Positions 30,038 through 48,561 are shown, counted from the first letter of the stretch. The stretch: 64,000 nt of DNA from Patescibacteria group bacterium (GCA_041649955.1 JBAZMD010000001.1:68079-132078), one strand, 5' to 3'. The notes: generated by a model not told the origin, from the letters alone. Translations and numbers: made by a program.

Positions 30038-30125
30038 AAATTTATTATTATTTAATATATTTAGAAACCTTTCTATATTTAATAGTAACCCAAAACAAAA
30101 CATTTGACAAGTGGATAAGGGTGGG

Positions 30126-30668
30126 CTAATTTTTAAGCGAAAATCTCCATTTTTTGTTTGCCCAATAAGGTCCGGCATAATCAATCCCAACTCTCTTAGT
30201 CGCAAAAATGCGGGATTTATTTATTTTTTCTCCTCTGTCTTCCAACCAAAATCTTTTGCTTTCAATAACATCTTCGCCGTAAAATGATTTGTCCAATTTT
30301 AAATATCTACAAAGTTTTCCCGGCCCGGAAGTTAAATTTTTTTCTTTAGAAGCTAGAGCGCGAATTAAAACGCATTCCGGCTTGCCTGATTTAGAAGTAG
30401 TGATATTCAATTGCCAATACATGCCATAAACCAAATAAATATAAATATGCCCGCCCTTGAAATATTCAGCAATATTTCGAGAAGTCATTCGATTGTTATA
30501 AGCATGGCAAGCTCTGTCTTTTGGGCCGACATAAGCTTCTGTTTCAATAATTTTTCCTTCTAATTTTTTATTGCCGATTTTTCTGACAATATATTTCCCC
30601 AATAATTCCTTGGCTACTTTTAAAGTCGGCCGAGTATAAAAATTTCTGGTTAATTTTTTTATTTTCAT
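30126..30668 (-). CDS. mpg: DNA-3-methyladenine glycosylase (Mpg/AAG family)
   Basis: 180 aa; ETEAYVGPKDRACHAY and GHIYIYLVYGMYW are Mpg signatures. Confidence 0.8.
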   Translation of the reverse strand: MKIKKLTRNFYTRPTLKVAKELLGKYIVRKIGNKKLEGKIIETEAYVGPKDRACHAYNNRMTSRNIAEYFKGGHIYIYLVYGMYWQLNITTSKSGKPECVLIRALASKEKNLTSGPGKLCRYLKLDKSFYGEDVIESKRFWLEDRGEKINKSRIFATKRVGIDYAGPYWANKKWRFSLKN

Positions 30669-30881: not shown

Positions 30882-33800
30882 TTATTTCGCGGCTAAGAAT
30901 TTCGGCGTGACTAAATTCTCGGCAAAATCTGAAATTGTTCCGCCGTCAGAATAAGTTTCAGCCTTAGAAATAGTCATTACCGGCACTTTGCTGTAACCAT
31001 TGTTGGTTAAAGCTTTGGCGGATAATTTATATTTCTTGCCGTTCTGAATCAGATAAATCTGAGAAGTTCCCGTGTATTTAACCAATGTTCCATTAGGATG
31101 TTTAGTCGTGGAATCAATCGTATCGCCTAAAGGATAATTGAATTTGGATAATAAATCATCAGGCACCCAAGTCACCAATTTCCATTTCGGATCATTGAAA
31201 AGTTTCTGATAAATCGCTGAAGATTTAACCGGTCTCAATTTGCCGTCAGAAACCATGAATACTGCCGAAGCGCTTAAACCGTGAAGCGATGTAGTCTTGC
31301 CTCTGAATAATGAACCGTCGCGGAATGTCATTGCTACGCCTTCAGAATATTTCGCAAATTCTTCAGAAGTAACCTTCTTGACTGTTGAGAAATTGGATGG
31401 ATAACCCCAAGAGAGATAAACATTAAGATGCGGGAAAACGTGCGCCTTGCCGTCCAAAATCATATAAACCGCGCCTGGTTGAGCAGTACAAGTCGGACAA
31501 ATAACCAAATCTCTATTTTTGAGATTATAAGTTATAACTTCTGCTGTTTCTTCTGATTCAGAAATAATTATTGCTGAAATTATTGAAGAGAGATTAAAAG
31601 TCTTATCTCTGAAACGGATATAAACCACTTTTTCTCCCTTACCAACTGGTAGTAACCAAGAACGAGTAGCTTGATACGGTTCCCAATTAATACCGACAAA
31701 ATCAATCGTATTACTAATCATCATTTCCGCGGCATCAGTAGCAGTAATGTTTAAAGTAACATTTCTGGAAGTAGTTTTCGCGGCACCACTATTTATCTTT
31801 AAGGATAAATCTTTTGGACCAAGATTACCTGCATTGCCACCACCTCCTGAACTGCCACTCATTGGGGTCGAATCTCCGCCAGCAGTAACAAACTTTCCTC
31901 CGGTAATACCGCCAGGTGTAAAATGGTTTGTGGTAACAATTATAACATTATTAGTTGCATCGCGAACCACTGATTTATAATTTTCCCAAGTGTTTGTGGT
32001 GTCATCAAAATATTTTGGCGTAATATCAGCTTCAGTATATCCATAATCTGTAATTAAATCCGGATCATAAGGGAATGTAATCTTTACGTCATTATCAAAT
32101 TGAGTGATTTCTTGACCAGTAGAGTCCTTAGCCGTGAAATCATAGTTAACGCCAAGCGGTTTATCTTTAGCATCCGGTTTCACTGATACCGTAGTTTGAT
32201 TTTCATCACCAACAGTCGGCGTAATAGTTACGGTAACTGTGCCACTGCTGGCTAAAGCTCCGGCTGGAATTTCAAGCGTCAGACCATTTGTAAGTTCAAT
32301 AGTTTTACTGTCTGAAGCGTTGAAAGTCGTAGTTTTAGCTTCAGGAACGGCAAGACCTGTGGTAACAAGAGTTAAATTCTTAGTTTGAGCGCCTGCTACG
32401 GTTATAACTTCAGTCGCAGCGCTTTCATAAAGGACTCCATCAATTTTGGCCGTGGCCTTAACATACCATGTTTCACCGGACTTAACTTTTAAAGTATAAG
32501 TTCCGTCAGAAGCCATTGTACCGGTTCCCTTATCCTCAGACCAAGCTTGTATCATTGCTTGTTTTCTAACGCTGTCTAAAGTAACCTCACCGGTGATAGT
32601 GGCATCTGATAAACTGAATTGAAGATCCTTACCTGTTACATTGGAATCGCCAACCGTCACACTGAGTAATGGCGGGTTAATCAAATCTCTCGCATCCCAA
32701 GGAGGAATACCGGCACCAATTTTGAAAGTACCACTGGTAACATTTAAAGTATAAGTGCCGTCATTTCCGGTAAAAGTACCAACACCCAAACCGCCCGGAC
32801 CCTTAAAATCATTTTTGGTCGTTTCATCACCAAAGTCAGCATAGACCCAAACTCCACTCATACCAACATCATCCGGATCCGTGATTGTACCGCTGATTGT
32901 TTTATCAAGTTTTTTAAGTTGGAAATTACGAGTAGTTGTACTATCGGCAATAACGGTTGATTTTACGTCTTCGGCTACTATTTTGTATTTATCATTATCA
33001 TCTCCAAAATTCATCATCGGATCAATAAAAGCGTCAACGTACCAACTGCCTGCTGAAACTTTTAATGAATATTTATCATTAACACTGCTTGGAGCAAATT
33101 CTGTTTGCGACCAGCCGCCATTTTCTTTATCACCATTGATAAAAGCGCGAACTCCTGTCACAACCGTATCTGTTCCTGCAGTATAAGAACTATCGCTATT
33201 AGTATCAAGATAAAATTTACCTTCAATCGTAGCATTATTCGGTGCCACCACTAAATCAATTTCTTTACATCCGGTTGTTTCGTCAGTACAAGTATCGCTT
33301 TCACCAACAGTAACAGTTTTAGTTACGGTTAAAGTATATTTAGAACCCGGAGGCGTATTTAAACCTAATTCATAACTGCCGAGCGGAACTTTAATTTCAG
33401 TATAACCATTAGCTAATCCTCCGCCGGCAAAACCACCTTTATCCATACCTGCTCCCATTGCTCCGCCGCCACCGCTGCCGCCACCTACAGCTGTTCCACC
33501 ACTACCTGCATCGCCGCTTCCACCTGCCATCATTTTCGGATCACCGAAATCAATAAAATCATTTACTGTCGGATCCGTATCTTTAACCCAAACTCCACCC
33601 CAAATATCGGAAACACGATTACCGTCAGCATCCACTACATTTACTTTAAGCAGACCATCGGCTACCTTTAATAAAAAGTCATTATTATCAGAAGTTTGAT
33701 TGGCGGTTATTGTTACTTGTTGCGGACCACCTTGATAAATATATTGAGTTGACATTGGCATAATCATTACGCCCCAATTTCCTTCACTGACAGTTAAATC

Positions 33801-36800
33801 AAATCTGCCGGTATTAGAATCTGTTTGTGTATTAGCCCAGCCCGGTCCATTCATTTGCCAAGCATTAACCATCACACTGCCAATTGCATTACCGGCCGAA
33901 TCTGTAACCGTTCCTTTAATATGAGCATTCTTTGCTGTTAAAATAAGTGTGCCTGCGTCAGTTGTTTGTTCAGAAATAGCTTTGATTTTAACCGGAGTGG
34001 AACCGCCATAACTCTGACCTTGTTCGCCCCAGTTTGGATTAGCCACCAAATCATAAGTACCAGCTGGAACTTTAAAAGTAAAACGTCCATCAGAATCAGT
34101 ATTGGCACCATTGCCACCACCCATCATACCGCCGCTATTGGCCATTACCCAAGAATTGGCAATTGCCGTAGCACCGGTTGGATCTTTAACTAAACCTGTA
34201 ATAATAGCATTGGCCACTTGAACTTCAAAATCCAAACCAGCATCAAGTATAGTAGCGCCTCCCGGACAATTTCCCACTGTACCGCGGCATTCCGTGCTGC
34301 CATCTTCGGTAAAAGTAGTTCTCTTTGGAGATTCATTATAAACCCAATCAGGTTGACCCATGCTCCAATCAGGATTTACACTTAACCACCAGCCGCCGCC
34401 GGCAAGTTTTAAAGTATATTCACCACTTGAATTTGTTAATGTTTCAAAATGTCCACCTCCCATATCGCGATTAGCTTGAACGCGGGCATTAGCGACTAAT
34501 GCACCGCTGCCCTTTTTAGTCACTGTACCGGTTAAAGTTTTTGTTGGGACAGTTAAGGTAATTAAATTATTTGCCTGAGCCACATTGGCCACTTTAACTG
34601 TGCCTACGTCATCAGCAACATCAACGGTTAATCCGCTTGGTTGAATCCAAGCTTTTTCACCGCCCCAAGGCAAATTGATTTCCATGGATAATCCGGTGGC
34701 ATTGGTTAAACCGCCGATTCGGAAATAACCTTGATCATCAGTTGAAGCACCACCCTGATTTTGCCACATTTGATCATGAATCATAATCCAAGACCATTGG
34801 ACAGGTTGATCATCCGCAGTTCCGGCAACTTCATCCGCACCCGGATTCATTACTCTTCCGGTAACTTGCGGCGTACCAAGTATGAGTTTACCGCCGGTTC
34901 CATAAGTCACACCTAAATCTAAATTAGAAGTTCCGGCAGCTACGGCAGAGGAAATTGTAATATTAGAATATTTTTTTGTTGAATAATTACGATAAACAGC
35001 TTGTTCTTCAGGCGTCCCCCAACGTGGAGCTTCAATTTCTAAAGCATAAGTTCCTGCTGTCACACCACCAAAAGAGAATTGACCGTTCTGATTAGTGTTT
35101 GTGCCATACCAACCACCCGTAGTACCGCCTTGCATTGGTCCTTCAATATGGAAATTAATCCAAGCATTAGCCACAGTTGTAGTAGTATTTGGAATAACAA
35201 CCGTACCGCTAATATTCGGAGTGCTTAAAATTATATTTTTGGTTCTGCTTGATTGAGAACTGGTAACTGTAACATTCTGAACAAGTTTTCTCCCGCAAGT
35301 AATATTTCCGCAACCATTCCAAGGATTTGCTTCCACTTCATAAGTACCAATAGTCACACCGCCAATGGCATAATTTCCATTAGCATCTGTTTGTGACCAT
35401 TGAGAACCGGACATTGAACCTTGTGATCGCATATTAATACCAACATTAGTTGCACCGATATCAGGATAACCCACCGGATCATCGCATTCAGCTTGAGTCA
35501 CAGTTGAATTGTCGTCATGTTTCGGTTTGCAAACACGACCGGTTAAACCATTAACTGTCGGGTCGCTTAACAAAACAAGTAAACTATTATTAGCAATTGT
35601 CAAAGCAGTACCCGGATCTGATACCTCGGTAATAGTAGTTCCGGCAACACTTACTACCATGCCTTGCGGCGCAGCATAAAGACTGCCGTATTGAGTATTG
35701 ACATTAAAATTCCAGCTGCCCGTAGGAACATTTAAACTAAATGTTCCATCACTTTGAGCACTGGCGCCATAACAACTACCGGCTGATTGATAAGGACAAA
35801 AATCAATCCAAATTCCGCTTTGTCCGGTTGTACCGGTTGGATCTTTAACTACACCAGTAACATTGGGTGCTGATAAAGTAAATGCGTCATCATCAACGCT
35901 ATCAAGAGTGTCAGCTTGATCTTTTAAATCATTAGAAGTAGTTGAAGTAATGGAAACTGAAAAATTACCGCTGGCACAAGCACTGCCGCTCGCCGGTTGA
36001 ATTCGAAGATTATAAGTACCAAGTGCCACGCCACCAAGAGAAAAATTACCACTATCATCAGTATTTACACCATACCAAGAACCATCTTTATCCATATTTA
36101 TCCAAGCGACGGTTGTTACACCACCGCATTTTACTTTTCCAAAAACATTTGGCAAAGCAAAAGTTTTATTTCCCAAATCAGTAATTTGTCCATCCGTAAC
36201 ATCAATGGCAAATTCAGCAGTTCTTGTTCTTGGATAACTTCTAAAGTCGCCGCTGTATGGCGGCTCAATTTCTAAAATATAATGAGTACTGTCTGTCACT
36301 CCGCCAAAATAAACTATGCCATCAGCATCGGTCTGTGCCCATTGATTGTAAGACCAATCCATAGTATGAAGACCAATATTGGCATAAGGCACTGGCAAAC
36401 CAGGCTGAGGATTACTTGCCGTAGCAGTATCACCTAAAGTACCAGGAGCCTTAATCGTTACTTTAACATTTTGAGCGGATAAATTGATATTAATGCCGGT
36501 TGCAGTTTGACCTGAAGTTAAACATTGAGAAGTTCTAACGCTTTTATATTGTAAAACTCTGTCTTGATAATCTTTGGGTCTGGCTTCAATTTCATAACAT
36601 TGGCTGCTGGTATCATTTGGAACATAAAGTTTCCATGTTCCGTTTGGACCGGTTGTTGTTCTTTGCTCATAGTCCCAAGTATAAGGACGAGCAACCACTT
36701 CTACGCCTTCCAATAATGTTGCGCCACTGGGAGATTTAACCGTACCGGAAAGAGTGGCTGTTCTAAAAGCTTGGGTGGCTAGTGTTGCCACTGAACCCAC

Positions 36801-37808
36801 CGTAGCTGTTTGACTGCTTAACTTGGAGGGCGCCACATAAGTCGCGCCGGCCGGGGTGCTGAATTGTATATTATAACTTCCGGTCGCACTTAATAATAAA
36901 GCATATTTGCCATTGGAATGAGTTTCCCCAAGCACGACATTTCCCATTTGTCCGGGCGTAAAAGATTCAACCTGGACTCTATCTATGTCACCGGCCGTAT
37001 CTGAGGTAAGACTACCTATAAATATGCCTTGCGTGCTATTCCAAATTATAAATGGTCGTGAATCTGAAACACGACGCGTATTCAAATCACTAATTATTAT
37101 ATCTACGCGGCCGTTTAATCCGGTTGGAATTGTAGCCGTAAGTTCAGTAGCTCCGGCAGTTGCAGGCGTGGATGTTACACTTCCTCCGTTAAAATTCCAA
37201 TATATTTCTGTTGCGTCAGTTGAGGTGGAATAATTAGAACCGGTAATCGTTACTGTATCGCCGACATTGCCGCACGGATAACCATTGCAAAGATCAGACT
37301 CAGTAGTATTGGTTATATAATTGATAATCGGATCAATAGAAGCGCTAACAGTATTGTTGGCAGTAAAATCTTCTATAGTTTGAGTTCCTGCTAAATTTTT
37401 AATATCTCCGGCTGTCATCTGCCAAGTTTGTCCTTCGCTTAATTTTAAATTTTTTAAACCGTAAATTCTTAAACGATAATCATTCTCGCCCGCCTGAATA
37501 CTTTGAGTTGACATATCATAAGGACTGAATCGACTTAATGTTCTGTCTGTTAATCCCGCTCCTGTTTCAAAAATAAAATTACGCAAATCTGTCGCGTAAT
37601 TGGTTGCACTTCCTGCTTCGGTTGTTGAAGATGGGGTTGTTTCTGCGGAAAATTGTCCGTTGAATGTAATTTCCGCTGAAGTTGTCGAGACCGTAATATC
37701 GGTCACGGCTATTGGTGCTAATGCACTCACTGATGTGGACAGCCCCATTGACCACAACATGGTCGTGGCTGTCACAAAAATTGAAAAAAACTTTTTTGTG
37801 TTGTTCAT
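30882..37808 (-). CDS. giant (2308 aa) secreted surface protein with many Ig-like/CarboxypepD_reg-like beta-sandwich repeats, Gly-rich segment and triple C-terminal ~50-aa module
   Basis: N-terminal signal peptide; SGTVKSPSGATLLEGVEVVA-type repeats; C-terminal GxLxKxxxSxxVYxIxNGxK modules shared with 8760-10340. Confidence 0.7.
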   Translation of the reverse strand: MNNTKKFFSIFVTATTMLWSMGLSTSVSALAPIAVTDITVSTTSAEITFNGQFSAETTPSSTTEAGSATNYATDLRNFIFETGAGLTDRTLSRFSPYDMSTQSIQAGENDYRLRIYGLKNLKLSEGQTWQMTAGDIKNLAGTQTIEDFTANNTVSASIDPIINYITNTTESDLCNGYPCGNVGDTVTITGSNYSTSTDATEIYWNFNGGSVTSTPATAGATELTATIPTGLNGRVDIIISDLNTRRVSDSRPFIIWNSTQGIFIGSLTSDTAGDIDRVQVESFTPGQMGNVVLGETHSNGKYALLLSATGSYNIQFSTPAGATYVAPSKLSSQTATVGSVATLATQAFRTATLSGTVKSPSGATLLEGVEVVARPYTWDYEQRTTTGPNGTWKLYVPNDTSSQCYEIEARPKDYQDRVLQYKSVRTSQCLTSGQTATGININLSAQNVKVTIKAPGTLGDTATASNPQPGLPVPYANIGLHTMDWSYNQWAQTDADGIVYFGGVTDSTHYILEIEPPYSGDFRSYPRTRTAEFAIDVTDGQITDLGNKTFALPNVFGKVKCGGVTTVAWINMDKDGSWYGVNTDDSGNFSLGGVALGTYNLRIQPASGSACASGNFSVSITSTTSNDLKDQADTLDSVDDDAFTLSAPNVTGVVKDPTGTTGQSGIWIDFCPYQSAGSCYGASAQSDGTFSLNVPTGSWNFNVNTQYGSLYAAPQGMVVSVAGTTITEVSDPGTALTIANNSLLVLLSDPTVNGLTGRVCKPKHDDNSTVTQAECDDPVGYPDIGATNVGINMRSQGSMSGSQWSQTDANGNYAIGGVTIGTYEVEANPWNGCGNITCGRKLVQNVTVTSSQSSRTKNIILSTPNISGTVVIPNTTTTVANAWINFHIEGPMQGGTTGGWYGTNTNQNGQFSFGGVTAGTYALEIEAPRWGTPEEQAVYRNYSTKKYSNITISSAVAAGTSNLDLGVTYGTGGKLILGTPQVTGRVMNPGADEVAGTADDQPVQWSWIMIHDQMWQNQGGASTDDQGYFRIGGLTNATGLSMEINLPWGGEKAWIQPSGLTVDVADDVGTVKVANVAQANNLITLTVPTKTLTGTVTKKGSGALVANARVQANRDMGGGHFETLTNSSGEYTLKLAGGGWWLSVNPDWSMGQPDWVYNESPKRTTFTEDGSTECRGTVGNCPGGATILDAGLDFEVQVANAIITGLVKDPTGATAIANSWVMANSGGMMGGGNGANTDSDGRFTFKVPAGTYDLVANPNWGEQGQSYGGSTPVKIKAISEQTTDAGTLILTAKNAHIKGTVTDSAGNAIGSVMVNAWQMNGPGWANTQTDSNTGRFDLTVSEGNWGVMIMPMSTQYIYQGGPQQVTITANQTSDNNDFLLKVADGLLKVNVVDADGNRVSDIWGGVWVKDTDPTVNDFIDFGDPKMMAGGSGDAGSGGTAVGGGSGGGGAMGAGMDKGGFAGGGLANGYTEIKVPLGSYELGLNTPPGSKYTLTVTKTVTVGESDTCTDETTGCKEIDLVVAPNNATIEGKFYLDTNSDSSYTAGTDTVVTGVRAFINGDKENGGWSQTEFAPSSVNDKYSLKVSAGSWYVDAFIDPMMNFGDDNDKYKIVAEDVKSTVIADSTTTRNFQLKKLDKTISGTITDPDDVGMSGVWVYADFGDETTKNDFKGPGGLGVGTFTGNDGTYTLNVTSGTFKIGAGIPPWDARDLINPPLLSVTVGDSNVTGKDLQFSLSDATITGEVTLDSVRKQAMIQAWSEDKGTGTMASDGTYTLKVKSGETWYVKATAKIDGVLYESAATEVITVAGAQTKNLTLVTTGLAVPEAKTTTFNASDSKTIELTNGLTLEIPAGALASSGTVTVTITPTVGDENQTTVSVKPDAKDKPLGVNYDFTAKDSTGQEITQFDNDVKITFPYDPDLITDYGYTEADITPKYFDDTTNTWENYKSVVRDATNNVIIVTTNHFTPGGITGGKFVTAGGDSTPMSGSSGGGGNAGNLGPKDLSLKINSGAAKTTSRNVTLNITATDAAEMMISNTIDFVGINWEPYQATRSWLLPVGKGEKVVYIRFRDKTFNLSSIISAIIISESEETAEVITYNLKNRDLVICPTCTAQPGAVYMILDGKAHVFPHLNVYLSWGYPSNFSTVKKVTSEEFAKYSEGVAMTFRDGSLFRGKTTSLHGLSASAVFMVSDGKLRPVKSSAIYQKLFNDPKWKLVTWVPDDLLSKFNYPLGDTIDSTTKHPNGTLVKYTGTSQIYLIQNGKKYKLSAKALTNNGYSKVPVMTISKAETYSDGGTISDFAENLVTPKFLAAK

Positions 37809-38785: not shown

Positions 38786-39673
38786 TTATTTTTTTCTTAA
38801 TTGATAAATGGTGTAGAATTTGGAAAAAGCGGGATGTTTAACCGGCTCTTTTATTTTTTTAACAATCGTAAAATATTTTTTAACCAGCCGGTCAAACATT
38901 TTTTCCGGCAGCATAGTAACGCGATGCGGCTGATTGTAAAAATCAAAAGTCATTAAATCATATTCTTTTTGAGTGATTTCTTTGTTTTTTAATTTCTCGC
39001 CTAAAAACAGATTAAATTTGTTCATCTCGGTAGTGTATTCTTTCTTGTTGTAAAATCGCGGATCTGAATAAGCGCAGCTTTCCCAAATATAAATTTTATT
39101 ATTCAATGATTTGAAATAATTCGGCTGGCGCTTGCATTTTTCAATCACGCTTTCCGCGGTCTGCAATATCGGACTCGCGTTGGTAACGGTAATAATCAAT
39201 TCTCCTCCCGGTTTCAGAATAGTTTTCATTGCCTTAAAAAATTGTTCGTACAACTCAAGATTGACCAAATTATTGGTTACGGCATGGCCGATAATGCAAT
39301 CAAATGTTTTGGGAAGAAAATATTTTGTCGCTTCTGTCCAAAGACCGTTGGTTATTTTTTCTTTGCTTTCTATTTTTTTTAAACCGTTCATTGTTTCAAC
39401 CATATTTTGGCTGAATTCCAAAAGCGTGACCTTAAATTTCATTTTTGCCAGACAATCCCGAATGGCCGGCGTACAGCCTAAAACCAAGGCCTTATTGCCT
39501 GATTTCTTTTTAATGATTTTTAAAATTTTAGCGCAAGCGGCAATATGCTTTTTTGAAGGCACAAAAGGCGGCGGAATTTTGGCATAGGTTTGAGTATACC
39601 CTTCTTGCCACACTTTTTTATTTATTGCTTCTTTTTCCATGTTAGTTATTTTTTTAAAAAATAAATTGGGCAT
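38786..39673 (-). CDS. SAM-dependent methyltransferase (paralog group with 27197-28054, 39646-40479)
   Basis: 295 aa; ALVLGCTPAIRD...LKPGGELIIT. Confidence 0.6.
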   Translation of the reverse strand: MPNLFFKKITNMEKEAINKKVWQEGYTQTYAKIPPPFVPSKKHIAACAKILKIIKKKSGNKALVLGCTPAIRDCLAKMKFKVTLLEFSQNMVETMNGLKKIESKEKITNGLWTEATKYFLPKTFDCIIGHAVTNNLVNLELYEQFFKAMKTILKPGGELIITVTNASPILQTAESVIEKCKRQPNYFKSLNNKIYIWESCAYSDPRFYNKKEYTTEMNKFNLFLGEKLKNKEITQKEYDLMTFDFYNQPHRVTMLPEKMFDRLVKKYFTIVKKIKEPVKHPAFSKFYTIYQLRKK

Positions 39674-40479
39674 TGGTGAACAAAAGGATGATCTGTACCG
39701 TATTTAACGGCAGAAATCTTGAAATATTTTTTCATCATTTTCTCCCCTTCTTTTTCCGGCAGAGTCCACCAAGTTTTGCCCAACGGCCATTGTTGATGAA
39801 AAATCTTAATCAATTTGGCTATTTGCTTTTTTCTGGCCGCGTTCTTTTCATCTTGCCAAGATTTTTTAAGCGCTGAACTGATGCCGTCCGTACTCGTACT
39901 ACTGTCTTTTGCTTTCCAAACAACAAATAATCCGCCATAAGCAAATTCACTGATACTTTCTTGATTAAATTTTTTCTTAATCACGAGATTAATAAATTCT
40001 TGAATTGATTTTTTGGGAAAAATAGGAAAAAGATGGCGGGTAATAAAACAACCGCCCGGCTTTAAAACCTCTCTGATTTTAGCCAAAAATTTCGGCTGTA
40101 ATTTAATCGGAATATTACAAATAACAAAATCTCCCAGAACAAAATCATAATAATTTTGAGCCACGGGCATAGTCAGCCAGCCGGCCTTAATCCAAGTTTC
40201 CTTGTCTGCATTTTTTTGATATTTCACCCATTTGGTCATAGCCATTAGCATATCCAAACTAATATCAACGCAAGTCACTTCTGCTTTTTGGCGATGCACC
40301 AAGTCGCGAAATTCGGGCGTTCCGCCTAAAATCAAAATTTTAGCCGGTTTTTTATGTTGAGCAATGAATTTTTCTATAATCTGGCATTCGCTTTTTGACG
40401 GCCGGTTGGGCGGAGTATAAACTTGCCATTGATGTGCCATTTTTTGCGCGTGATAATAAGCTACTTTTGGTTCTGCCAT
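39646..40479 (-). CDS. SAM-dependent methyltransferase (paralog)
   Basis: 277 aa; ILILGGTPEFRD...LKPGGCFIT; overlaps downstream paralog by 28 nt. Confidence 0.6.
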   Translation of the reverse strand: MAEPKVAYYHAQKMAHQWQVYTPPNRPSKSECQIIEKFIAQHKKPAKILILGGTPEFRDLVHRQKAEVTCVDISLDMLMAMTKWVKYQKNADKETWIKAGWLTMPVAQNYYDFVLGDFVICNIPIKLQPKFLAKIREVLKPGGCFITRHLFPIFPKKSIQEFINLVIKKKFNQESISEFAYGGLFVVWKAKDSSTSTDGISSALKKSWQDEKNAARKKQIAKLIKIFHQQWPLGKTWWTLPEKEGEKMMKKYFKISAVKYGTDHPFVHQCPIYFLKK

Positions 40480-40507
40480 AATTGTCGATTTAGATCCGCC
40501 AACTGGC

Positions 40508-40657
40508 GGAGAAATAAATTTTCGCTACAATTTATGAGCACCCTGCTTCAAACCTCTAAACAAAATCAGTTCAAAGATAGCGTAAGCCGAAGGCGTTTCC
40601 ATGAATTAAATTAATTATTTTTTCACGAACCTTCTTCGGGTTTGGGGCGTGGGTCGC
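40508..40657 (+). repeat. intergenic repeat family A, copy 3
   Basis: Between two MTase genes; conserved gaaataaattttcgctac and ttcgggtttggggcgtgggt. Confidence 0.55.
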
Positions 40658-40669
40658 CATAAAATAATT

Positions 40670-41506
40670 TTAATTATATTTTTGAAGAATAAAATAAAAA
40701 TATTTTCTTTTTCCATTTTTAAATGAATTGCATAACTCTGAATCTTTAACTCCCGCGAATTGCTTGCCGAGATTTTGCAAAAATTTCGGCAAAAATTGCC
40801 TAACAAGTTTCATCCTTCTTTCATTATCCAAATTCAATGCCCTAAAAACATTTTCCGTTATATCTTCTTTTTTTATTATTTTCAATTTTGATTTATTAAT
40901 GGAGTCAAAAAAAGATTGAATTAATTCCCGGCTTCTGAAATCGGCGAATAAAAAATATCCTTTAGGTTTTAATATTCTTTTCGCTTCCTGTAAAAATTTA
41001 TTAAAATTAGGGTAAGAATGAGAAGATTCTATGTTTATCGCCGCGTCAAAACTTTCATCTTCAAAAGGAATTTTTATGGCGTTTCCGTATTCAAATTTTA
41101 AATTTTTTTCATAATGATGCTCTCTGTCAAATTTTATTTCTGCTTTGGAATTATCTATGCCGACGATCAGTTTGGGCTTGAAATATCTGGCAATGAAAGA
41201 AGTTCCGCCGCCCTTCCCGCATCCTACTTCTAAAACTTTTTTATCTTTTATATTAATAGAACTCACTACCTTATGATACAACTGGGCGCAATATCTGTTT
41301 TCTTCATCAATTTTTTCCAATCTTAATTTTTCCCGGTATTGATATCCGTAATTCAAAAAAATCACCTCTCCTTTTGAATCAATTTTTGAAAGATGATTAT
41401 ACCACTTATTCACCACTAAAGACTGGCCCTTAAGATAAATCTTGTTGACTAAATTAAAAAAATTTAATATCTTTATTAATTTTTTAATCCAATCTTTCTT
41501 CGTCAT
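40670..41506 (-). CDS. class I SAM-dependent methyltransferase
   Basis: 278 aa; motif I VLEVGCGKGGGTSF, LKPKGYFLFAD. Confidence 0.7.
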   Translation of the reverse strand: MTKKDWIKKLIKILNFFNLVNKIYLKGQSLVVNKWYNHLSKIDSKGEVIFLNYGYQYREKLRLEKIDEENRYCAQLYHKVVSSINIKDKKVLEVGCGKGGGTSFIARYFKPKLIVGIDNSKAEIKFDREHHYEKNLKFEYGNAIKIPFEDESFDAAINIESSHSYPNFNKFLQEAKRILKPKGYFLFADFRSRELIQSFFDSINKSKLKIIKKEDITENVFRALNLDNERRMKLVRQFLPKFLQNLGKQFAGVKDSELCNSFKNGKRKYFYFILQKYN

Positions 41507-41513
41507 ATATTTT

Positions 41514-42962
41514 TTATTTTCGCCCTCTTTTAATTATTATAACCTTCCCGTGTGTTGCGTCAACTTCTATCAAATCACCGTCTTTCAAAACCTTAGTGGC
41601 GATTTTGGTGCCGATAATACACGGCTTTCCCATTTCACGGGCAATGATAGCCGCATGACAAGTTAATCCGCCATCATTTGTAATTATTGCTTTAGTTTTT
41701 GAAATTGCCCCCATAAAATCTGGAGTTGTCATAAAAGTAACAAGAATTTCTCCTTTTTTCATTTTAGATATTTCGGCCGCATTTCTGATAATTCTAACTC
41801 TACCCTTAACATAACCGGCCGAGGCTGACACACCTTTAATAATCCGTATTAAAGAATCTTTAACAATTTTATTCTTGGGTATAAAAATTTTTATTTTTCC
41901 TTTATGTAATCTTATAAAATAATTATTGTTTCTTTTTTTAAGCTCGGGGGTGGAAATTAAAAGTTTTCCAATTTTTAAACTGGCAATTAATTCATCTGAA
42001 GTCAAATTAGTTAAATCAGTATAATCAACAGAAAGTCGCTTGCCAACTTCTGAAAAAAAGAATCTCATTAAGTATTCCGAGTTTTCTATGAAAGAAAGCA
42101 TTTCTGTTCTATAAAAAGACAGATTAGCTAAATCTTTAAATAATTTTTTTGTAATTTTATCAATTGCATATTTTTTATATAATGCCTTCTTGTCAGAAGC
42201 TAAATCAATTTTCATTTTGGGATAATTTTTTTTCTTTAGAGCAATTTTTATTTCCTCAATGGTGTCTATAATTGTAGGGTATTTATCAGTAGTAAAAAAG
42301 ACACAACCCATTCTCACATATTTTTGATGAAATTTATTTATTATTTTTTTTAGTCTTTTGGGGGAATTATCAATTATTTCATTCAATTTTCTATTAAACA
42401 ATTTTTGGTATTTCGCTCTTCTGATAAAATTAACGATTTTTTGCAAATCATCCTGCTTTTTTTCGATATAATTTTTTCTAGAGGACTGCATTAATATCCC
42501 AAATTCTTCATCTTCTTGTTTTTTATTAACAACTGATAGCAAATTTTTAGTAAGTGCATCAATGCTAAAATTTCCTGTATACACATAACCTATAAAACGC
42601 GCATAATAATCTGTCCAAGCTGTAAATAATTTTATCAATTTTCTATTTGAATACTTCTCTATTTTATAGGAGCTGACCTTTTTACTGAATTTATATAATT
42701 TCCTTCCATATTTTTTGTATTCAGCAAAAAGTTTTTTTAATTTACCATTTTTAATATTCTTCAATATTTCATGATGCGCAACCTCTATATCTTCTAACCC
42801 AAAATAAGCTTGAGCTTTAATCTGACTATTTATATATTTATAATCTTGGATTATCCTGCTATGCAAGGGTGTTTTAGAAACATAACCCGCTAAGGCGTAT
42901 TTAGTGGCTATATATCTGGGAAGCAGAGGTAGGGCCTTTTGTGTTGTAGCTATCCATTTCAT
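41514..42962 (-). CDS. PEP-utilizing-enzyme mobile (swivel phosphohistidine) domain protein with novel ~380-aa N-terminal region (P1)
   Basis: 482 aa; C-terminus ILVTFMTTPDFMGAISKTKAIITNDGGLTCHAAIIAREMGKPCIIG matches the PpsA/PPDK His domain; no ATP-grasp or TIM barrel. Confidence 0.75.
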   Translation of the reverse strand: MKWIATTQKALPLLPRYIATKYALAGYVSKTPLHSRIIQDYKYINSQIKAQAYFGLEDIEVAHHEILKNIKNGKLKKLFAEYKKYGRKLYKFSKKVSSYKIEKYSNRKLIKLFTAWTDYYARFIGYVYTGNFSIDALTKNLLSVVNKKQEDEEFGILMQSSRKNYIEKKQDDLQKIVNFIRRAKYQKLFNRKLNEIIDNSPKRLKKIINKFHQKYVRMGCVFFTTDKYPTIIDTIEEIKIALKKKNYPKMKIDLASDKKALYKKYAIDKITKKLFKDLANLSFYRTEMLSFIENSEYLMRFFFSEVGKRLSVDYTDLTNLTSDELIASLKIGKLLISTPELKKRNNNYFIRLHKGKIKIFIPKNKIVKDSLIRIIKGVSASAGYVKGRVRIIRNAAEISKMKKGEILVTFMTTPDFMGAISKTKAIITNDGGLTCHAAIIAREMGKPCIIGTKIATKVLKDGDLIEVDATHGKVIIIKRGRK

Positions 42963-42980
42963 AATTTAATTTTAAATTAT

Positions 42981-43925
42981 TTACAAAGTCGTAATCGGCC
43001 TACTTTGTACGATATAGAACTTTTTATTTTCCAAAGCCCACTCAATATCGCAGGGAAATTTATAATGTTTTTCAATTTGAGCGCACAATTTAGCCAATTC
43101 AATAATTTGTTTGTTGTTGAATTTTTGTTTAGCACGCAATTTATTCGGCACTTTTACCCATTCGCTGCCAATGCCTGATTTTTTCTGAACAATCATTTTT
43201 TCTTGCTCTGAAATATTAATATCAATAATTTTCCATGTTTTTTTATTAATCACATAACTGTCAGGCGTAATATGTCCGCCGACAATCGCCTCTCCCAAAC
43301 CCCAACCGGCTTCAATAATCAGCTGGTTTTTATCTTTTGTAACAGGATGAGTGGTAAAACAAATGCCTGAAATTTCCGATTGAATCATTTTCTGAATTAC
43401 CACGGCCACGGAAACTTTTGATTTTCTCATTCCTTGTTCCCGGCGATAAACAATTGCTCTTTGAGTAAAAAGCGAAGACCAGCAATCTTTAACTCGACCT
43501 AATAAATTCTGCCGAGTTGTATTGAGATAACTTTCCAGTTCTCCGGCCCATGAAGCGACTGACGAATCTTCGGCTGTCGCGCTGCTCCGAACCGCCACAT
43601 GTTTTGCTTTTAATTTATCAAAATCAATTAAAATTTCTTGCTGTAAATCTTTAGGCATTTTTGCGTCATGAATTAAATCGCGAATTAATTTTGATGCCTG
43701 ATCAACCGAATTAACATCTTTATAATTCACTTTATTTAAAGCCGATTCAATTTCAACATCTATATCAGTTTCTGTTAAAAATCTTTCAAAGGCATCAGCC
43801 AAAACCACAAATCCCGGCGGCACTTGAATTCCCGCTTGTGTCATTTCTCCCAACGACGCCCCCTTGCCTCCGGCAATTCCAACATCTTTTTTTGATAATT
43901 GTTTAAAATTTTTAGTAAATTTCAT
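42981..43925 (-). CDS. stand-alone PEP synthase/PPDK N-terminal ATP-binding (ATP-grasp, PPDK_N) domain protein
   Basis: 314 aa; AGGKGASLGEM, AVRSSATAEDSSVASWAG, AGWGLGEAIVGG, IEKHYKFPCDIEWA, YIVQSRP all parallel the E. coli PpsA N-terminal domain. Confidence 0.85.
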   Translation of the reverse strand: MKFTKNFKQLSKKDVGIAGGKGASLGEMTQAGIQVPPGFVVLADAFERFLTETDIDVEIESALNKVNYKDVNSVDQASKLIRDLIHDAKMPKDLQQEILIDFDKLKAKHVAVRSSATAEDSSVASWAGELESYLNTTRQNLLGRVKDCWSSLFTQRAIVYRREQGMRKSKVSVAVVIQKMIQSEISGICFTTHPVTKDKNQLIIEAGWGLGEAIVGGHITPDSYVINKKTWKIIDINISEQEKMIVQKKSGIGSEWVKVPNKLRAKQKFNNKQIIELAKLCAQIEKHYKFPCDIEWALENKKFYIVQSRPITTL

Positions 43926-43945
43926 ATATTTTTATTTTAATTTAT

Positions 43946-45397
43946 TTATTTATTTTTTAAAATTTTGACTAATCCATGATTTGCATTAACTTCCACCAAA
44001 TCACCGTCTTTCAAAACCTTAGTGGCAATTTTGGTGCCAACCAAGCACGGAATCCCTAATTCCCTTGAAACAATAGCCGCGTGGCAAGTTAATCCTCCTT
44101 CGTCGGTAATAACCGCCCCTGCTTTTTTTATTGCCACAATAAATTCAGGCGAAGTCATTGGGGCAACCAAAATTTCACCTTGCTTCATTTTATTTAGATT
44201 ACGGGGTGTTAATAATATTCTGACTCTTCCCTGAATTTTACCGCAACCGGCGCTGACAACCATACCATTTATTATCCCAGATTCTCTATTGACTTCCTTT
44301 TTCAAGAAAGGCCTGATTAAATTTATCTGTTTTTTCCCGCTCTTGAGAGTCAAAACATTTTTATAATAATGAATTAAGGCAAATTTTTTTCTATTTGCTA
44401 TTTCTTTAGAAGATACTTTTGCGCCATTTTTTAATAATTTGATAATTTCATTCGGCCAATAAAACATTAAATCGGAAAAATTAATTTTTTTTCTTCTGGA
44501 AATCTCTTTCAAGAATAAATCAACATAATGATTGGCGATAAAAATTTCTTTTTTCCTCGTATCCTGCCACCAGATTGAAGCCGAAAGCCTTTTAACTGTC
44601 TTAATGGTTTTTGCGTTAAGTTTATATTTTCTGAATAATTGATTTTTTTGAAAAATTATTTTTCTCGGCAAATTTTTGATTTCCTTTATTTTTTGATTAA
44701 CTTGCCTGATGCCTGATAATATTTTTTTAAAATACTCCGCTTTCAATTGTTTTTGTTCAAAATAACTGTTTCTAATCCAAAAATATCGTCGGATATGTTT
44801 TTCAATCAATTGATCAAATTTTTTTGTTCCCTGATATTTTTTTATTTCCAATAAATCCAATTCTTCTTTTTGATAAAAAGAAAGATTTTCCGGAGCGGCT
44901 AATTTTTCAAGGGCTGAAATAAATTCTTTTTGGTTGTCAATTTGCTTGGATAATTCTTCTTTTAAAATTTCTTCACCGCCCAAATTGGCAAGTTCCGGAA
45001 CTAATCCCACTCCCCAAAAATTTATATACAAATTGTGCCATTTATTGTAAGTATCGGCGAAGGCCTTATCAGTCAATAAACCGAGAGATTTTTCTGAAAT
45101 TTTCGTCTGGAAATTTTTTAATTTATTCAAGGCTTTTTTATAATCAGCTTGAACTTTTTTAAAATTTAAATCATTCAAAATCCATGTATTAAAATGTTTT
45201 CTTCCGGCTGTCCTGACATTTTTTTCATCGGAAATAAAAGTCATTTTATCTTTTGTAAAATAAAACAAAATCTCGGGCCAGTGATATTTGTAATAACGGG
45301 GCAAGTTCGTGGCAATCCCTATCATAAAATAGGATATATAAATCATTCTCCCGTCAATCGGTCCCCAAATCCAAAGTTTTTTTTGTGAATTAATCAT
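43946..45397 (-). CDS. PEP-utilizing-enzyme mobile domain protein, paralog P2
   Basis: 483 aa; C-terminus ILVAPMTSPEFIVAIKKAGAVITDEGGLTCHAAIVSRELGIPCLVG. Confidence 0.75.
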   Translation of the reverse strand: MINSQKKLWIWGPIDGRMIYISYFMIGIATNLPRYYKYHWPEILFYFTKDKMTFISDEKNVRTAGRKHFNTWILNDLNFKKVQADYKKALNKLKNFQTKISEKSLGLLTDKAFADTYNKWHNLYINFWGVGLVPELANLGGEEILKEELSKQIDNQKEFISALEKLAAPENLSFYQKEELDLLEIKKYQGTKKFDQLIEKHIRRYFWIRNSYFEQKQLKAEYFKKILSGIRQVNQKIKEIKNLPRKIIFQKNQLFRKYKLNAKTIKTVKRLSASIWWQDTRKKEIFIANHYVDLFLKEISRRKKINFSDLMFYWPNEIIKLLKNGAKVSSKEIANRKKFALIHYYKNVLTLKSGKKQINLIRPFLKKEVNRESGIINGMVVSAGCGKIQGRVRILLTPRNLNKMKQGEILVAPMTSPEFIVAIKKAGAVITDEGGLTCHAAIVSRELGIPCLVGTKIATKVLKDGDLVEVNANHGLVKILKNK

Positions 45398-46868
45398 TGT
45401 TTAAATGTTTTAAAATTTTAACAATTCCCCTGTTCGCATCCACCTCCACCAAATCCCCGTTACGTAATGTCCCTGTTAAACCGTGAATTCCTACTATACA
45501 AGGTGTTTTCAACTCTCGCGAAACAATGGCCGCATGAGAAGTGATACCACCCCTTTCGGTTAAAATCGCTTTTGCTTGCTTCATAAGAAAGATATAATCC
45601 GGCGTAGTGTGGGAGGCAACCAATATAGCTCCCTTTTTAAATTTAGAAAAATCTCTTTCTGATTTTATAATTAAAACTTGGCCGATAACGTTTCCAGGAT
45701 AAACGGCTGCCCCGCAAAGAACCTTTTTCTTTTCTTGGCGCAATAAAATTGATCTTATTTTCAGAGCTGACTCACCTTCTAATAATGAGTAATCTTTATC
45801 AATCCCCAAAAAGATAATGGTGGATTTTTGTCTTTTTTTAATAAGATTTAAAAAATTATTTTTATTTTTTAAATTTATCTGCAACTGCTCTTCCCAAGTT
45901 AACCATCTGAATTTTTCGTAATCCAGCGCATAATTTTTTGCCACTCTTTTAAGCCAAGTCTTAATGGGTATTGTTGTTTGTAAATTAAAAGCTTTTCTTT
46001 GGTCTCTTAATTTATACAGAATATCAAGAAAATTAATCAATTTTTTAATATTTTCAGGTTTTGTTTTTAAAATTTTTCTCTTCTTTTTTCTTTGTTTTTC
46101 CGAACATTTTATTTTTTCCCACTCATTTTTAAAATTCTGTGCCAAATCTATACCATGTTCTATAAATAAAATTTCTTTTGGCAAAGCGTGCGACTTAAAA
46201 TTTAAAAATACCCAACCCCATTTTTGAGCGTGAAAAATAATTTTTTTACTTAAAATCTCATATTTTGCCAAATCTCGTACTCCGCTTTTTAGCTTTTTAA
46301 ATTCTTCAGACGGCAAACTTTTAATCAATTCTAATAAATTTTTATGTTCTTCCATTACAAAAGAGTCCTGTAAGGGCGTCATCAGCAACATTAATTCTTT
46401 CTCGTCTTTAATGGTTTCTTTGATTTTTATTTCCAAATATTTTTCAACAGCTTCACAGGTATTCATTAATAAAGCCATCCACTTCTGAATAACTTCTACA
46501 AAATTCGTATATATTTTTTTGTCTATCTTTGCTGATTTTTCTAATCTATCAAGAGCTTGCCAATTTTTTTTCGTCAGATTAATAAATTCTTTTTCTAATT
46601 GAATTGGATTATTCTTATATTTCAAATAAAATACCTGGCCCAATTTTAATAATGATTTTTTATCCAAACAATAATAAAAAGAATCTTTGTCATAAATTTG
46701 AATTAATTTAGCGCAGATTCCAAACATTTTTTTCTGAAGAGTACAGCTTCTCTTAAAACCCAAGTCCGTCCACCAAAAAAAATCAGCGTCATATTTGCCG
46801 ATTTCAAGATCGTCTTTTATCTTTTTTATTTTATTGATAAAGCTAGACACAAGTTTCTTTTCGGACAT
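45390..46868 (-). CDS. PEP-utilizing-enzyme mobile domain protein, paralog P3
   Basis: 492 aa; C-terminus ILVASHTTPDYIFLMKQAKAILTERGGITSHAAIVSRELKTPCIVG. Confidence 0.75.
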   Translation of the reverse strand: MSEKKLVSSFINKIKKIKDDLEIGKYDADFFWWTDLGFKRSCTLQKKMFGICAKLIQIYDKDSFYYCLDKKSLLKLGQVFYLKYKNNPIQLEKEFINLTKKNWQALDRLEKSAKIDKKIYTNFVEVIQKWMALLMNTCEAVEKYLEIKIKETIKDEKELMLLMTPLQDSFVMEEHKNLLELIKSLPSEEFKKLKSGVRDLAKYEILSKKIIFHAQKWGWVFLNFKSHALPKEILFIEHGIDLAQNFKNEWEKIKCSEKQRKKKRKILKTKPENIKKLINFLDILYKLRDQRKAFNLQTTIPIKTWLKRVAKNYALDYEKFRWLTWEEQLQINLKNKNNFLNLIKKRQKSTIIFLGIDKDYSLLEGESALKIRSILLRQEKKKVLCGAAVYPGNVIGQVLIIKSERDFSKFKKGAILVASHTTPDYIFLMKQAKAILTERGGITSHAAIVSRELKTPCIVGIHGLTGTLRNGDLVEVDANRGIVKILKHLNND

Positions 46869-46872
46869 ATTT

Positions 46873-47787
46873 TTATGGTTGTAAAATATCTTCTGTTCGG
46901 CCGTTAATGGAAATAGTCACATTTTGAACGGTCGGAAATTGTTTTAATGTTTCAATAATTTGGGCTCTGATGGCTGATACTTTACAAGAACCGCCGACTT
47001 GAAATTCCAATTGCTTGTCAAAATCAACTTTTGCCGTTCCATTGTTAATGGTCAATTTTTGAATTTTTACGCCCGAATTGATACTGGAAAAAAATCCTTG
47101 CGCTTTTTCCGCTTCAGTCGCTCCTTTTAATAATTCTTCCAAAGCAGCCCGGCCGATTGCTTCTGTTTTAATTATTTTTCTTTCAACCGGAAAAACTTTA
47201 TTGCAGGAAATTTCCGGATCTAATTTATTATTATTGAAATAAACTTTTATTGTCGTCATTTCAGTTGGATTGATAACAACCGGCACTCGCAATTCATCGG
47301 CATTTTGCGGCAAACCCGAAGGATTATCTTTTTCTAAAATTAAAATACCTTTAGTTTCGATTGGTGCGTTAAATTGCAAGGTGGCCGTGAAAGGCACAAA
47401 ATTTTCCGTCATCCAATCGCTTTTGGCCTGAGCAATTCCTTTGGCAATTTCTGCACCCGAAGAATCCAAAAGTTTAATTGGAAAACTTGCTTCAAAAAAC
47501 CAATTTCCTCTCGCCTCGCCTTCAATTTCCAAAGGACTGGAAATAATTTCATCCGGCTGAGGTTTTGTCACTTTTATATCAGCGGTTTTATTTTCTGTCT
47601 GTTGATTATTTTTTACAGCACTATTGCACGATTGAGTCGGCATTGACGCGCTGGGATTTCCATGTTTTATCCATTGGCCGTTTGAACAAATCCAATTATC
47701 TTCCGGTCCGCCGATTAAAAATCTTAGAACTAAAACAATAATTACTAAAATCAACGGGCTTAATATTATTAATCTTTTTTTTATCAT
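46873..47787 (-). CDS. GerMN/Gmad2 domain lipoprotein-like protein
   Basis: 304 aa; N-terminal TM, Gmad2 Ig-like segment, C-terminal GerMN-like segment. Confidence 0.55.
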   Translation of the reverse strand: MIKKRLIILSPLILVIIVLVLRFLIGGPEDNWICSNGQWIKHGNPSASMPTQSCNSAVKNNQQTENKTADIKVTKPQPDEIISSPLEIEGEARGNWFFEASFPIKLLDSSGAEIAKGIAQAKSDWMTENFVPFTATLQFNAPIETKGILILEKDNPSGLPQNADELRVPVVINPTEMTTIKVYFNNNKLDPEISCNKVFPVERKIIKTEAIGRAALEELLKGATEAEKAQGFFSSINSGVKIQKLTINNGTAKVDFDKQLEFQVGGSCKVSAIRAQIIETLKQFPTVQNVTISINGRTEDILQP

Positions 47788-47813: not shown

Positions 47814-48086
47814 TTATCTACTTACCCAAAAAATGTCAGCTTCTTTTTCCATTTTATCCAATCTGGTGTAATAATCCGGAAATTCGTTTAAGTGCGCCAA
47901 AGCAATTTTACCGGTGGTTGTCAAATCATCATTGGTCACATTGGTGTGATCGTCACGTAAGCCGTGTTCTAGTTCCACATCCATTCCCATTCTAAATTGC
48001 TCAACATCAAATTTAGTCCAATCAATACCCAATGACTCGCCTATTTGCTTGGCTTCTTCAATTGTAAAACTTTTTCTTAATTCCAT
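47814..48086 (-). CDS. hypothetical protein
   Basis: 90-aa ORF. Confidence 0.4.
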   Translation of the reverse strand: MELRKSFTIEEAKQIGESLGIDWTKFDVEQFRMGMDVELEHGLRDDHTNVTNDDLTTTGKIALAHLNEFPDYYTRLDKMEKEADIFWVSR

Positions 48087-48210: not shown

Positions 48211-48561
48211 CTAATTGTCCCGTCCGTATCCGCCTCTGCTTCCACCGCCGTATCCACCGCGGCTTCCGCCACCACCACCAAATCCTCTTCCACCACCGGT
48301 TCTTGGTCTTTCTTCTCTTGGTCTAGCTTCGCTGACCTTAAGATTGCGGCCGTCGATTGGTTGGTTGTTGAACATTTCAATGGCTTTTGCGGCTTCGTCT
48401 TCTGTGGACATTTCCACAAAACCGAATCCTTTGCTTCTACCGGAATATTTATCGGTAATAATACTCGCTGAGACAACTGTTCCGGCCTGGCCGAAAGTTT
48501 CTTTCAATTGATCGTCAGTGAGATTATATGATAAATTTCCGATGTAAAGTTTCTTTTCCAT
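48211..48561 (-). CDS. glycine-rich RNA-binding protein (RRM domain)
   Basis: 116 aa; RNP2 LYIGNL, RNP1 KGFGFVEM, C-terminal RGG/GGYGGG tail. Confidence 0.85.
   Translation of the reverse strand: MEKKLYIGNLSYNLTDDQLKETFGQAGTVVSASIITDKYSGRSKGFGFVEMSTEDEAAKAIEMFNNQPIDGRNLKVSEARPREERPRTGGGRGFGGGGGSRGGYGGGSRGGYGRDN

Follow-up and report, generated by a model that had tools for sequence, protein, structure and literature searches.

A probable hub-and-spoke dikinase with one ATP-grasp subunit and three acceptor paralogs in a Patescibacteria genome

The DNA considered here is a window of 64,000 nucleotides from a Patescibacteria group bacterium (GCA_041649955.1 JBAZMD010000001.1:68079-132078), in which positions are counted from the first letter. 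Four adjacent minus-strand genes between 41514 and 46868 encode one stand-alone ATP-grasp protein and three paralogs, parA, parB and parC, each with a swivel phosphohistidine domain near its C-terminus. These four genes probably make up a hub-and-spoke two-component ATP-dependent dikinase, in which a single ATP-binding subunit powers several specific kinases. An original prediction, made from the sequence alone, had placed these open reading frames (ORFs) and their neighbours on the minus strand, and all of them lie where it had placed them. It had also described the genes as a split phosphotransferase of the rifampin phosphotransferase (RPH) or phosphoenolpyruvate (PEP) synthase type, with the ATP-grasp domain supplied in trans. 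That description is borne out by the lack of TIM barrels in the genes, an RPH-like fold and fused relatives; the split architecture, in contrast, has precedents. The four genes are as follows.

41514..42962, minus strand: parA, 482 amino acids (aa), divergent N-terminal domain (N-domain) and swivel domain; member of a rare subfamily
42981..43925, minus strand: stand-alone nucleotide-binding ATP-grasp subunit, 314 aa, PF01326 only
43946..45397, minus strand: parB, 483 aa, helical predicted substrate-binding N-domain (~1-368) and swivel phosphohistidine domain; member of the most conserved subfamily
45390..46868, minus strand: parC, 492 aa, the most divergent N-domain and a swivel domain; member of a moderately conserved subfamily

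Results

The ATP-grasp subunit

The 314-aa protein is, as originally proposed, a PPDK_N domain and nothing else (Pfam PF01326, E 2.4e-101, profile positions 3-311 of 328). Among the NCBIfam models of the PEP synthase PpsA it scores 354.9 bits with NF005057 (cutoff 598) and 346.6 bits with TIGR01418 (cutoff 739.75), and among those of RPH 285.6 bits with NF041857 (cutoff 999) and 195.6 bits with NF000283 (cutoff 1700). It falls under all of these cutoffs because only the first ~330 positions of the models are matched. Residues K22, R117, T136 and E297 of RPH-Lm, which bind the ATP polyphosphate (PMC4844700), correspond in an alignment to K21, R113, S132 and E295 of this protein. For comparison, 82 other related loci of ~20 kb each were assembled, with 1249 ORFs. 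The protein is 59% identical to a 314-aa ortholog in one of these (L001) and 45% identical to one of 310 aa from a Woesearchaeota locus, and the survey of related genomes for the split arrangement found stand-alone orthologs of the same length in about 25 other loci. A pseudogene fragment of a fused gene was considered as an explanation for the short protein, and is ruled out by these same-length orthologs and by the kept equivalents of K22, R117 and E297.

The swivel domains

In Pfam, each of the three paralogs matches only PF00391, near the C-terminus, with E-values of 1e-24 to 1e-26 (parA 1.4e-24; parC 8.7e-26). The catalytic His expected in all three was checked by alignment and is present, as H436 in parA (codon 41655-41657), H439 in parB (codon 44081-44083) and H445 in parC (codon 45534-45536). 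Its surroundings read GGLTCHAAI in parA and parB and GGITSHAAI in parC, within the common form T-D/N/E-x-GG-L/I-T-C/S-H. The His is kept in 253 of 253 family members, as are G434, G435, R445 and E446 (parB numbering), and the Thr two residues ahead of it (GGxT[CS]H) is kept in 85%. The paralogs score 98-120 bits with the NCBIfam PpsA models and 31-74 bits with the RPH models, all below cutoff. More generally, the models of PEP synthase, RPH, PigC and others in that collection match only the ATP-grasp or swivel segments, far under their cutoffs. The swivel domains of the window paralogs are ~50-62% identical to each other and the one N-domain pair that BLAST could align, parA with parB, is 23% identical, a pattern that fits a common docking partner and shared chemistry combined with different substrates.

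The N-terminal domains

The only pair of N-domains aligned by BLAST was that of parA and parB (BLASTP E 2e-9, 23% over 277 aa); parB against parC gave E 0.016, and parA against parC gave no significant direct BLASTP match. Relatives in other genomes align with parA, parB and parC over almost their whole length. Judging from these alignments, the N-terminal regions belong to a single family of helical domains, within which they have diverged greatly. The earlier view, that the paralogs have three different N-terminal regions and the swivel domain alone in common, is refuted by the parA/parB match and the bridging relatives.

Since the swivel domain could dominate a fold score, the N-domain was modelled separately (pLDDT 93.5). 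When this isolated model was searched with Foldseek, the top six matches were all RPH-Lm (E 4.9e-4 to 6.8e-3, probability 1.00, TMq 0.46-0.51) and the seventh had an E-value of 0.54. The rifampin-binding domain of RPH is consequently the sole solved structure that resembles the N-domain over most of its length, and the proposal that this is a substrate-binding domain of the RPH type gains from a search in which RPH alone matched convincingly. The domain is an elongated helical bundle, and weak fold matches to helical scaffolds were also obtained. A search of the PDB with the N-domain sequence profile gave no meaningful match, and the relationship to RPH is therefore a distant, fold-based one. 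Partial sequence extensions into RPH-like models immediately upstream of the swivel domain lend it some support.

Conservation in the N-domain, measured over the 253 members in parB numbering, centres on D279 (77%), R281 (87%) and K282 (81%), which form a D-x-R-K motif, and on R336 (93%) and E317 (87%). parC keeps the corresponding D289, R291, K292 and R346. In parA the D-x-R-K motif is degenerate, with R285 kept and T286 in place of the Lys. The parB subfamily has, in addition, many invariant polar and aromatic residues in its N-domain.

Distribution of the family

parB has thousands of relatives, and the full-length ones listed are ~480 aa long. Wherever a source is named, it belongs either to the candidate phyla radiation (CPR)/Patescibacteria (Kuenen-, Buchanan-, Parcubacteria and others) or to the DPANN archaea (Woese-, Nanoarchaeota). 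When one genome per species was scanned, at least 587 matches were obtained, of which the best 78 loci were examined for taxonomy; nearly all of these 78 belong to CPR phyla or to Woese-, Nano-, Micr- or Iainarchaeota. The other labels among them are Gammaproteobacteria and Methanosarcinales third-party annotation metagenome-assembled genomes (TPA MAGs), Aminicenantes and a Clostridium MAG, and we suspect the Gammaproteobacteria and Methanosarcinales labels to be wrong. The family is thus largely confined to CPR/Patescibacteria and DPANN archaea.

The paralogs differ in how widely they occur. The parB subfamily is widely conserved, with up to 51% identity in Woesearchaeota, and parC has ~22 full-length relatives at 35-46% identity. 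For the parA N-domain, a search of 1.84 billion sequences gave only 7 representatives at E<=1e-10, a count that takes in the cluster of parA itself. Among paralogs with a neighbour in the same locus, the nearest N-domain was in another genome for 174 of 177; the arrays are therefore made of old, distinct subfamilies and not of recent duplications.

One ATP-grasp gene and several acceptors

Swivel genes number from 1 to 11 per locus in the 82 loci, and never more than one ATP-grasp-containing protein was listed in any of them; the stand-alone ones are 254-344 aa long. Tandem arrays with a single ATP-grasp gene are found in L003 and L023 as well as in L001, where a parB relative of 72% identity stands with two more paralogs and the 314-aa ATP-grasp protein. 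In a locus from Nealsonbacteria, a single 329-aa ATP-grasp protein accompanies 11 swivel ORFs, of which nine are 462-501 aa long, and a Woesearchaeota locus has five swivel genes and one ATP-grasp gene.

Fused relatives give the same picture within one chain. The ATP-grasp domain is joined to one acceptor unit in L070, L080 and L057 (801-827 aa) and to two in L053:829-4422 (1197 aa), and a 3761-aa ORF of a Woesearchaeota MAG (L077:6266-17551) has one ATP-grasp domain followed by eight N-domain-plus-swivel units. The order is reversed in P0145 (828 aa), where a parC-type unit precedes a C-terminal ATP-grasp domain. The parB N-domain also aligns with the central part of an 819-aa protein that is a single chain (E 1e-14). 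The single-chain relatives in L057, L070 and L080 are, like the split proteins, well under the RPH and PpsA cutoffs. From the gene counts and the fusions we infer that one ATP-grasp subunit is common to several acceptors.

Two further ORFs were noted among the fusions. L082:1-4599 is a four-unit fusion in which no ATP-grasp domain was seen, the ORF being clipped by the end of the locus. P0015, to which a precomputed PF02350 'epimerase' annotation gave the appearance of a sugar-metabolism fusion, was rejected as such: the domain match is faint, and the protein is really two acceptor units in tandem.

Proposed mechanism

In the reaction that we propose, the 314-aa ATP-grasp protein would bind ATP, and the C-terminal swivel domain of parA, parB or parC would dock on it so that its His could attack the beta-phosphate. 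Hydrolysis of the gamma-phosphate would then leave phospho-His, AMP and Pi. The swivel domain would return to its own N-domain and pass the phosphoryl group to a small-molecule substrate held there, a step in which the D-x-R-K motif and a conserved Arg (R336 in parB) would assist. Each paralog would have a separate substrate. This chemistry is plausible by analogy with RPH and with the two-component systems PpsAB and HpeHI, and the part given to the D-x-R-K motif in phosphotransfer is drawn from its conservation.

Our guess is that the substrates are polar hydroxylated metabolites, for example sugars or nucleoside-like compounds, which the cell would take from a host and retain by phosphorylating them. 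We favour common polar metabolites over antibiotics because the subfamilies are deeply conserved, because many of the invariant residues of the parB N-domain are polar or aromatic, and because of the kinds of genes that recur nearby.

Several observations weigh against one ATP-grasp subunit serving all three paralogs. HpeH and HpeI form no stable complex (PMC12167813), and the sharing of an ATP-grasp subunit can therefore not be read from sequence alone. Many loci have no ATP-grasp gene within 10 kb, and the pairing may therefore not be strict. parA, in which part of the D-x-R-K motif is missing, may be inactive or work differently. Finally, co-adaptation of the swivel domains within one genome was not seen, the best match of a swivel domain being in the same locus for 10 of 224 and in another genome for 214 of 224.

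Neighbouring genes

Outside the four genes, the following features of the window bear on the interpretation.

38786-39673, minus strand: MT3, class I methyltransferase with a GxTPExRD motif I, tandem paralog of MT2
39646-40479, minus strand: MT2, class I methyltransferase with a GxTPExRD motif I, tandem paralog of MT3
40670..41506, minus strand: MT1, class I S-adenosylmethionine methyltransferase
46873..47787, minus strand: GerMN/Gmad2 protein (Pfam Germane E 1e-20, Gmad2 E 7e-15)
23839-25290: Cys_Met_Meta_PP pyridoxal phosphate (PLP) enzyme, beside methyltransferases 25377-26237 and 27197-28054

By their coordinates, the GerMN gene and parC are separated by 4 nt, as had been noted originally, parC and parB overlap by 8 nt, and spacers of 20 nt (parB/ATP-grasp), 18 nt (ATP-grasp/parA) and 7 nt (parA/MT1) follow. 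MT1 and MT2 are 190 nt apart, and MT2 and MT3 overlap by 28 nt. The GerMN gene and parC are probably co-transcribed, as are parA and MT1. GerMN/Gmad2 does not figure in the set of recurrent neighbours of the 82 related loci and is hence not a conserved partner; inspection of its N-terminus by eye revealed no evident lipobox, and the original label of lipoprotein is accordingly tentative. A scan of the window with Rfam found a single tRNA only, and no riboswitch ahead of the cluster. The PADLOC defence-system models gave no match for the ATP-grasp protein or for parA, parB and parC, and the window methyltransferases match only generic methyltransferase-domain models there.

MT1 belongs to Methyltransf_31/11/25 in Pfam. 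Its best NCBIfam match is phthiotriol dimycocerosate O-methyltransferase (237.7 bits, cutoff 300), and fatty-acid O-methyltransferase Mtf2 is also matched below cutoff. MT2, MT3 and the 27197-28054 gene are 24% identical to each other and have the unusual GxTPExRD motif in common. Pfam agrees with the original assignment of these three and MT1 to the class I methyltransferases; the total of four given for the window is too low, a fifth being present at 25377-26237. A homolog search with MT2 returned 21 relatives, all of those with a source name being Patescibacteria, and the MT2 sequence occurs unchanged (100% identity) in a Patescibacteria MAG. Tandem methyltransferase arrays headed by a PLP enzyme, seen in all three loci reached in this way, are an expanded family of their own in Patescibacteria.

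A conserved third subunit was sought among the 82 loci and no universal partner was found, the recurrent neighbours being heterogeneous. They comprise an MtxX-like protein of ~283 aa (9 loci), TrmB (9), hexapeptide transferase (6), His_Phos_1 (6), PTA_PTB (5), HAD (5 plus 4), cytidylyltransferase-like (5) and HD (4) families, and none of these families occurs in this window. The ~283-aa protein, which is unannotated, often comes directly after a swivel gene, as in L042:7320-8171 and 9 other genes in 9 loci (for example L001:5201-6052 and L006:11458-12300), and by sequence it matches a single PDB entry, 'uncharacterized methyltransferase MTH_231' (9nzy, E 2e-9). In L005, L007 and L047, canonical phosphotransacetylase genes were observed beside parB-type genes or in their vicinity.

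Other features of the window were noted in passing. The GerMN gene is preceded, 26 nt upstream, by that of a DUF5661 protein (47814-48086), and a 116-aa ORF at 48211-48561 has, by eye, the look of a glycine-rich RNA-binding (RRM-like) protein. Two giant ORFs, at 10987-18165 and 30882-37808, encode 2392 and 2308 aa; the latter has a signal-like start and abundant Thr/Ser/Gly repeats and is, from these sequence features, probably a surface protein. A fusion of a Na/Pi cotransporter with PhoU (19257-20864) adjoins a Cache/HAMP/PAS histidine kinase (21297-23756), and the two share the strand of the dikinase cluster. An ORF of 521 aa with a TTG start (28640-30205) has no Pfam match.

Discussion

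Alternative explanations

A PEP synthase (pyruvate, water dikinase) that is split and otherwise ordinary, working forward or in reverse in central metabolism, would agree with the higher scores of the ATP-grasp and swivel domains against PpsA (354.9 bits with NF005057; ~106-120 bits) than against RPH models, and with the well-kept Thr two before the His, which is a regulatory site in PpsA. Public records indeed label some family members 'phosphoenolpyruvate synthase/pyruvate phosphate dikinase', and metabolic reconstructions list such an enzyme in DPANN genomes devoid of glycolysis. According to a preprint of 2026, 'PEP synthase (K01007)' is present in 54 of 54 Pacearchaeales genomes without glycolysis, and its role is described there as uncharacterised (bioRxiv 10.64898/2026.05.13.725050). 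We nevertheless consider this explanation very improbable. The PEP-utilizers_C TIM barrel was found neither in the four proteins (no PF02896 in Pfam), nor in the window (tblastn with the PpsA TIM barrel as query), nor in the 1249 ORFs of the 82 loci (phmmer). All NCBIfam PpsA scores are far under cutoff, the His domain is C-terminal and follows an RPH-like helical domain, and 3-11 divergent paralogs would make no sense for a single substrate. Furthermore, a true TIM-barrel PpsA is a separate kind of gene in another Patescibacterium (L083). An even smaller chance is given to a protein phosphorelay or regulatory device like Enzyme I of the phosphotransferase system (PTS), in which the N-domain would be a protein-interaction module. 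Enzyme I also has a swivel domain, and the elongated helical N-domain with its weak matches to scaffolds would suit such a role, but no HPr-like protein and no other small partner recurs beside the genes, the ATP-grasp domain is of the dikinase type and not PEP-dependent, and the one specific match to the N-domain fold is a domain that binds small molecules.

Two other explanations accept a dikinase and differ in what it would act upon or with. An RPH-like battery of phosphotransferases that inactivate xenobiotics or antibiotics, one toxic molecule per paralog, is suggested by RPH being the sole solved structural relative of the substrate domain, by the multi-paralog arrays with variable substrate domains that are typical of detoxification families, and by the contact of episymbionts with other microbes. 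It remains improbable, since the paralogs are ancient subfamilies (the 174 of 177 best N-domain matches in other genomes), and parB types that are up to 51% identical between bacteria and archaea are better suited to conserved metabolites than to variable toxins. The polar and aromatic invariants of the parB N-domain also contrast with the mainly hydrophobic rifampin cleft (PMC4844700), the genes that recur nearby encode phosphatases, Pta-like proteins, TrmB regulators and nucleotidyltransferases and not efflux or resistance functions, and the dikinase proteins have no PADLOC match. A joint phosphorylation-methylation pathway, in which the dikinase and MT1-MT3 act on the same molecules, for instance a surface polymer or lipid, had been part of the original prediction. 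It would explain why only 7 nt separate parA from MT1 on one strand, with no convincing terminator before 38576; two archaeal loci (L033 and L050) interleave MT2-type and swivel genes, in places so closely that the stop codon of one gene overlaps the start codon of the next, and the ~283-aa neighbour family of 9 loci resembles the MTH_231 methyltransferase. However, MT2 types stand beside swivel genes in just those 2 of the 82 other loci, whereas all three loci reached through MT2 homologs (L083, L084 and L085) hold independent arrays of 5-11 methyltransferases in tandem beside a Cys_Met_Meta_PP enzyme, with no split dikinase. The window has such a PLP-plus-methyltransferase group of its own, 11-15 kb off. 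MT1 does not recur beside swivel genes in the 82 loci, not even in the 72%-identical relative L001, and the gap of 190 nt separates it from MT2. The combined module is accordingly not a conserved unit, a joint pathway is unlikely, and MT2 and MT3 are probably a separate system that is adjacent by chance.

The PEP synthase of L083 (13502-16843), which is canonical, has a LAGLIDADG intein directly ahead of its catalytic His (GGRT / C...VVNN / CHAAI).

Significance

CPR bacteria and DPANN archaea account for a large share of microbial diversity and encode very little metabolism, and a family that fills up to ~15 kb of one locus and is conserved in both domains represents a conspicuous gap. If the hub-and-spoke dikinase is real, it would provide a concrete set of enzymes for the capture of host metabolites by symbionts, it would correct metabolic reconstructions in which these genes are counted as PEP synthase, and it would extend two-component dikinases from aromatic catabolism to a larger and older one-to-many radiation. 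It is plausible that many K01007 'PEP synthase' calls are this split dikinase without a TIM barrel. More speculatively, and with considerable doubt on our side, the family could be the main route by which the most reduced CPR bacteria and DPANN archaea phosphorylate metabolites scavenged from hosts, with one ATP-binding hub, up to a dozen ancient, substrate-specific acceptors, and the 'PEP synthase' reported for genomes without glycolysis being this system. The replacement of conventional sugar, nucleoside or cofactor kinases, absent from such genomes, by acceptor subunits, which would form part of such a main route, is put forward just as tentatively.

Comparison with known systems

RPH (PDB 5FBS/5FBT/5HV1; PMC4844700) has the same three modules, an ATP-grasp domain, a helical substrate-binding domain and a C-terminal swivel His domain, and its ATP-site residues K22, R117 and E297 are conserved in the window ATP-grasp protein. 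It differs in being a single chain where the window genes are split, and its substrate domain is 9-16% identical to the ~368-aa window N-domain, below detection by sequence profile. RPH has catalytic residues R666, E667 and K670 in the apex of that domain, for which the D-x-R-K motif (D279, R281, K282) and R336 of the window family are possible counterparts. In sequence, archaeal-type PpsA is the nearest relative of both the ATP-grasp and the swivel domains (8a8e: E 5e-76 and 3.5e-26), and the GGxT[CS]HAAI motif is common to them and PpsA/PPDK; unlike these enzymes, the window system has no TIM barrel, its His domain is C-terminal instead of central, and its genes are split and multiplied. The prodigiosin ligases PigC and RedH likewise use an ATP-grasp/swivel-His pair on non-pyruvate substrates, and their models match both modules, but they are single-chain enzymes with different substrate domains and the scores are far below the family cutoffs. 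Glucan, water dikinase is a further single-chain enzyme of dikinase type that applies an ATP-grasp/swivel-His pair to a non-pyruvate substrate.

Split enzymes of this kind have been described. In phenylphosphate synthase the His lies on a 70-kDa alpha subunit, and the diphosphoryl group is supplied by a beta subunit of 40 kDa (PMC6114531); a 2025 study of HpeHI introduced 'two-component small-molecule dikinases' as split RPH homologs, with CreHI and PpsAB as further members (PMC12167813). PpsAB(C) is from Thauera aromatica, CreHI from Corynebacterium glutamicum and HpeHI from Rhodococcus rhodochrous (PMC12167813, PMC6114531). In common with the window genes, these systems have a separate ATP-grasp subunit of ~310-390 aa and a partner in which an RPH-like helical substrate domain precedes a C-terminal swivel His domain, the two being encoded by adjacent genes. 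By analogy, the expected chemistry would also be alike, from ATP through pyrophospho-His and phospho-His to the substrate, with release of AMP and Pi. The differences lie in stoichiometry, sequence and host. The known systems are 1:1, whereas here one ATP-grasp gene accompanies three acceptors, and up to 11 elsewhere. HpeH, at 71 kDa, contrasts with acceptors of ~485 aa, and has Met where the window paralogs keep the Thr two before the His. Members of the characterised HpeH/CreH/PpsA clade are ~45% identical in pairs, and PRK08296-type models of ~600 aa match the window paralogs in the swivel part only, the N-domains having no sequence similarity to these models, which suggests that the window family is a different clade. 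Its hosts are CPR and DPANN organisms and not degraders of aromatic compounds, and no aromatic catabolic genes are nearby. Literature searches combining CPR or DPANN with swivel, PEP-utilizing or dikinase proteins found no description of this family. Together, these comparisons show that the split architecture was already known, and that what is undescribed in the searchable literature is a CPR/DPANN-centred family with a layout of one ATP-grasp to many acceptors.

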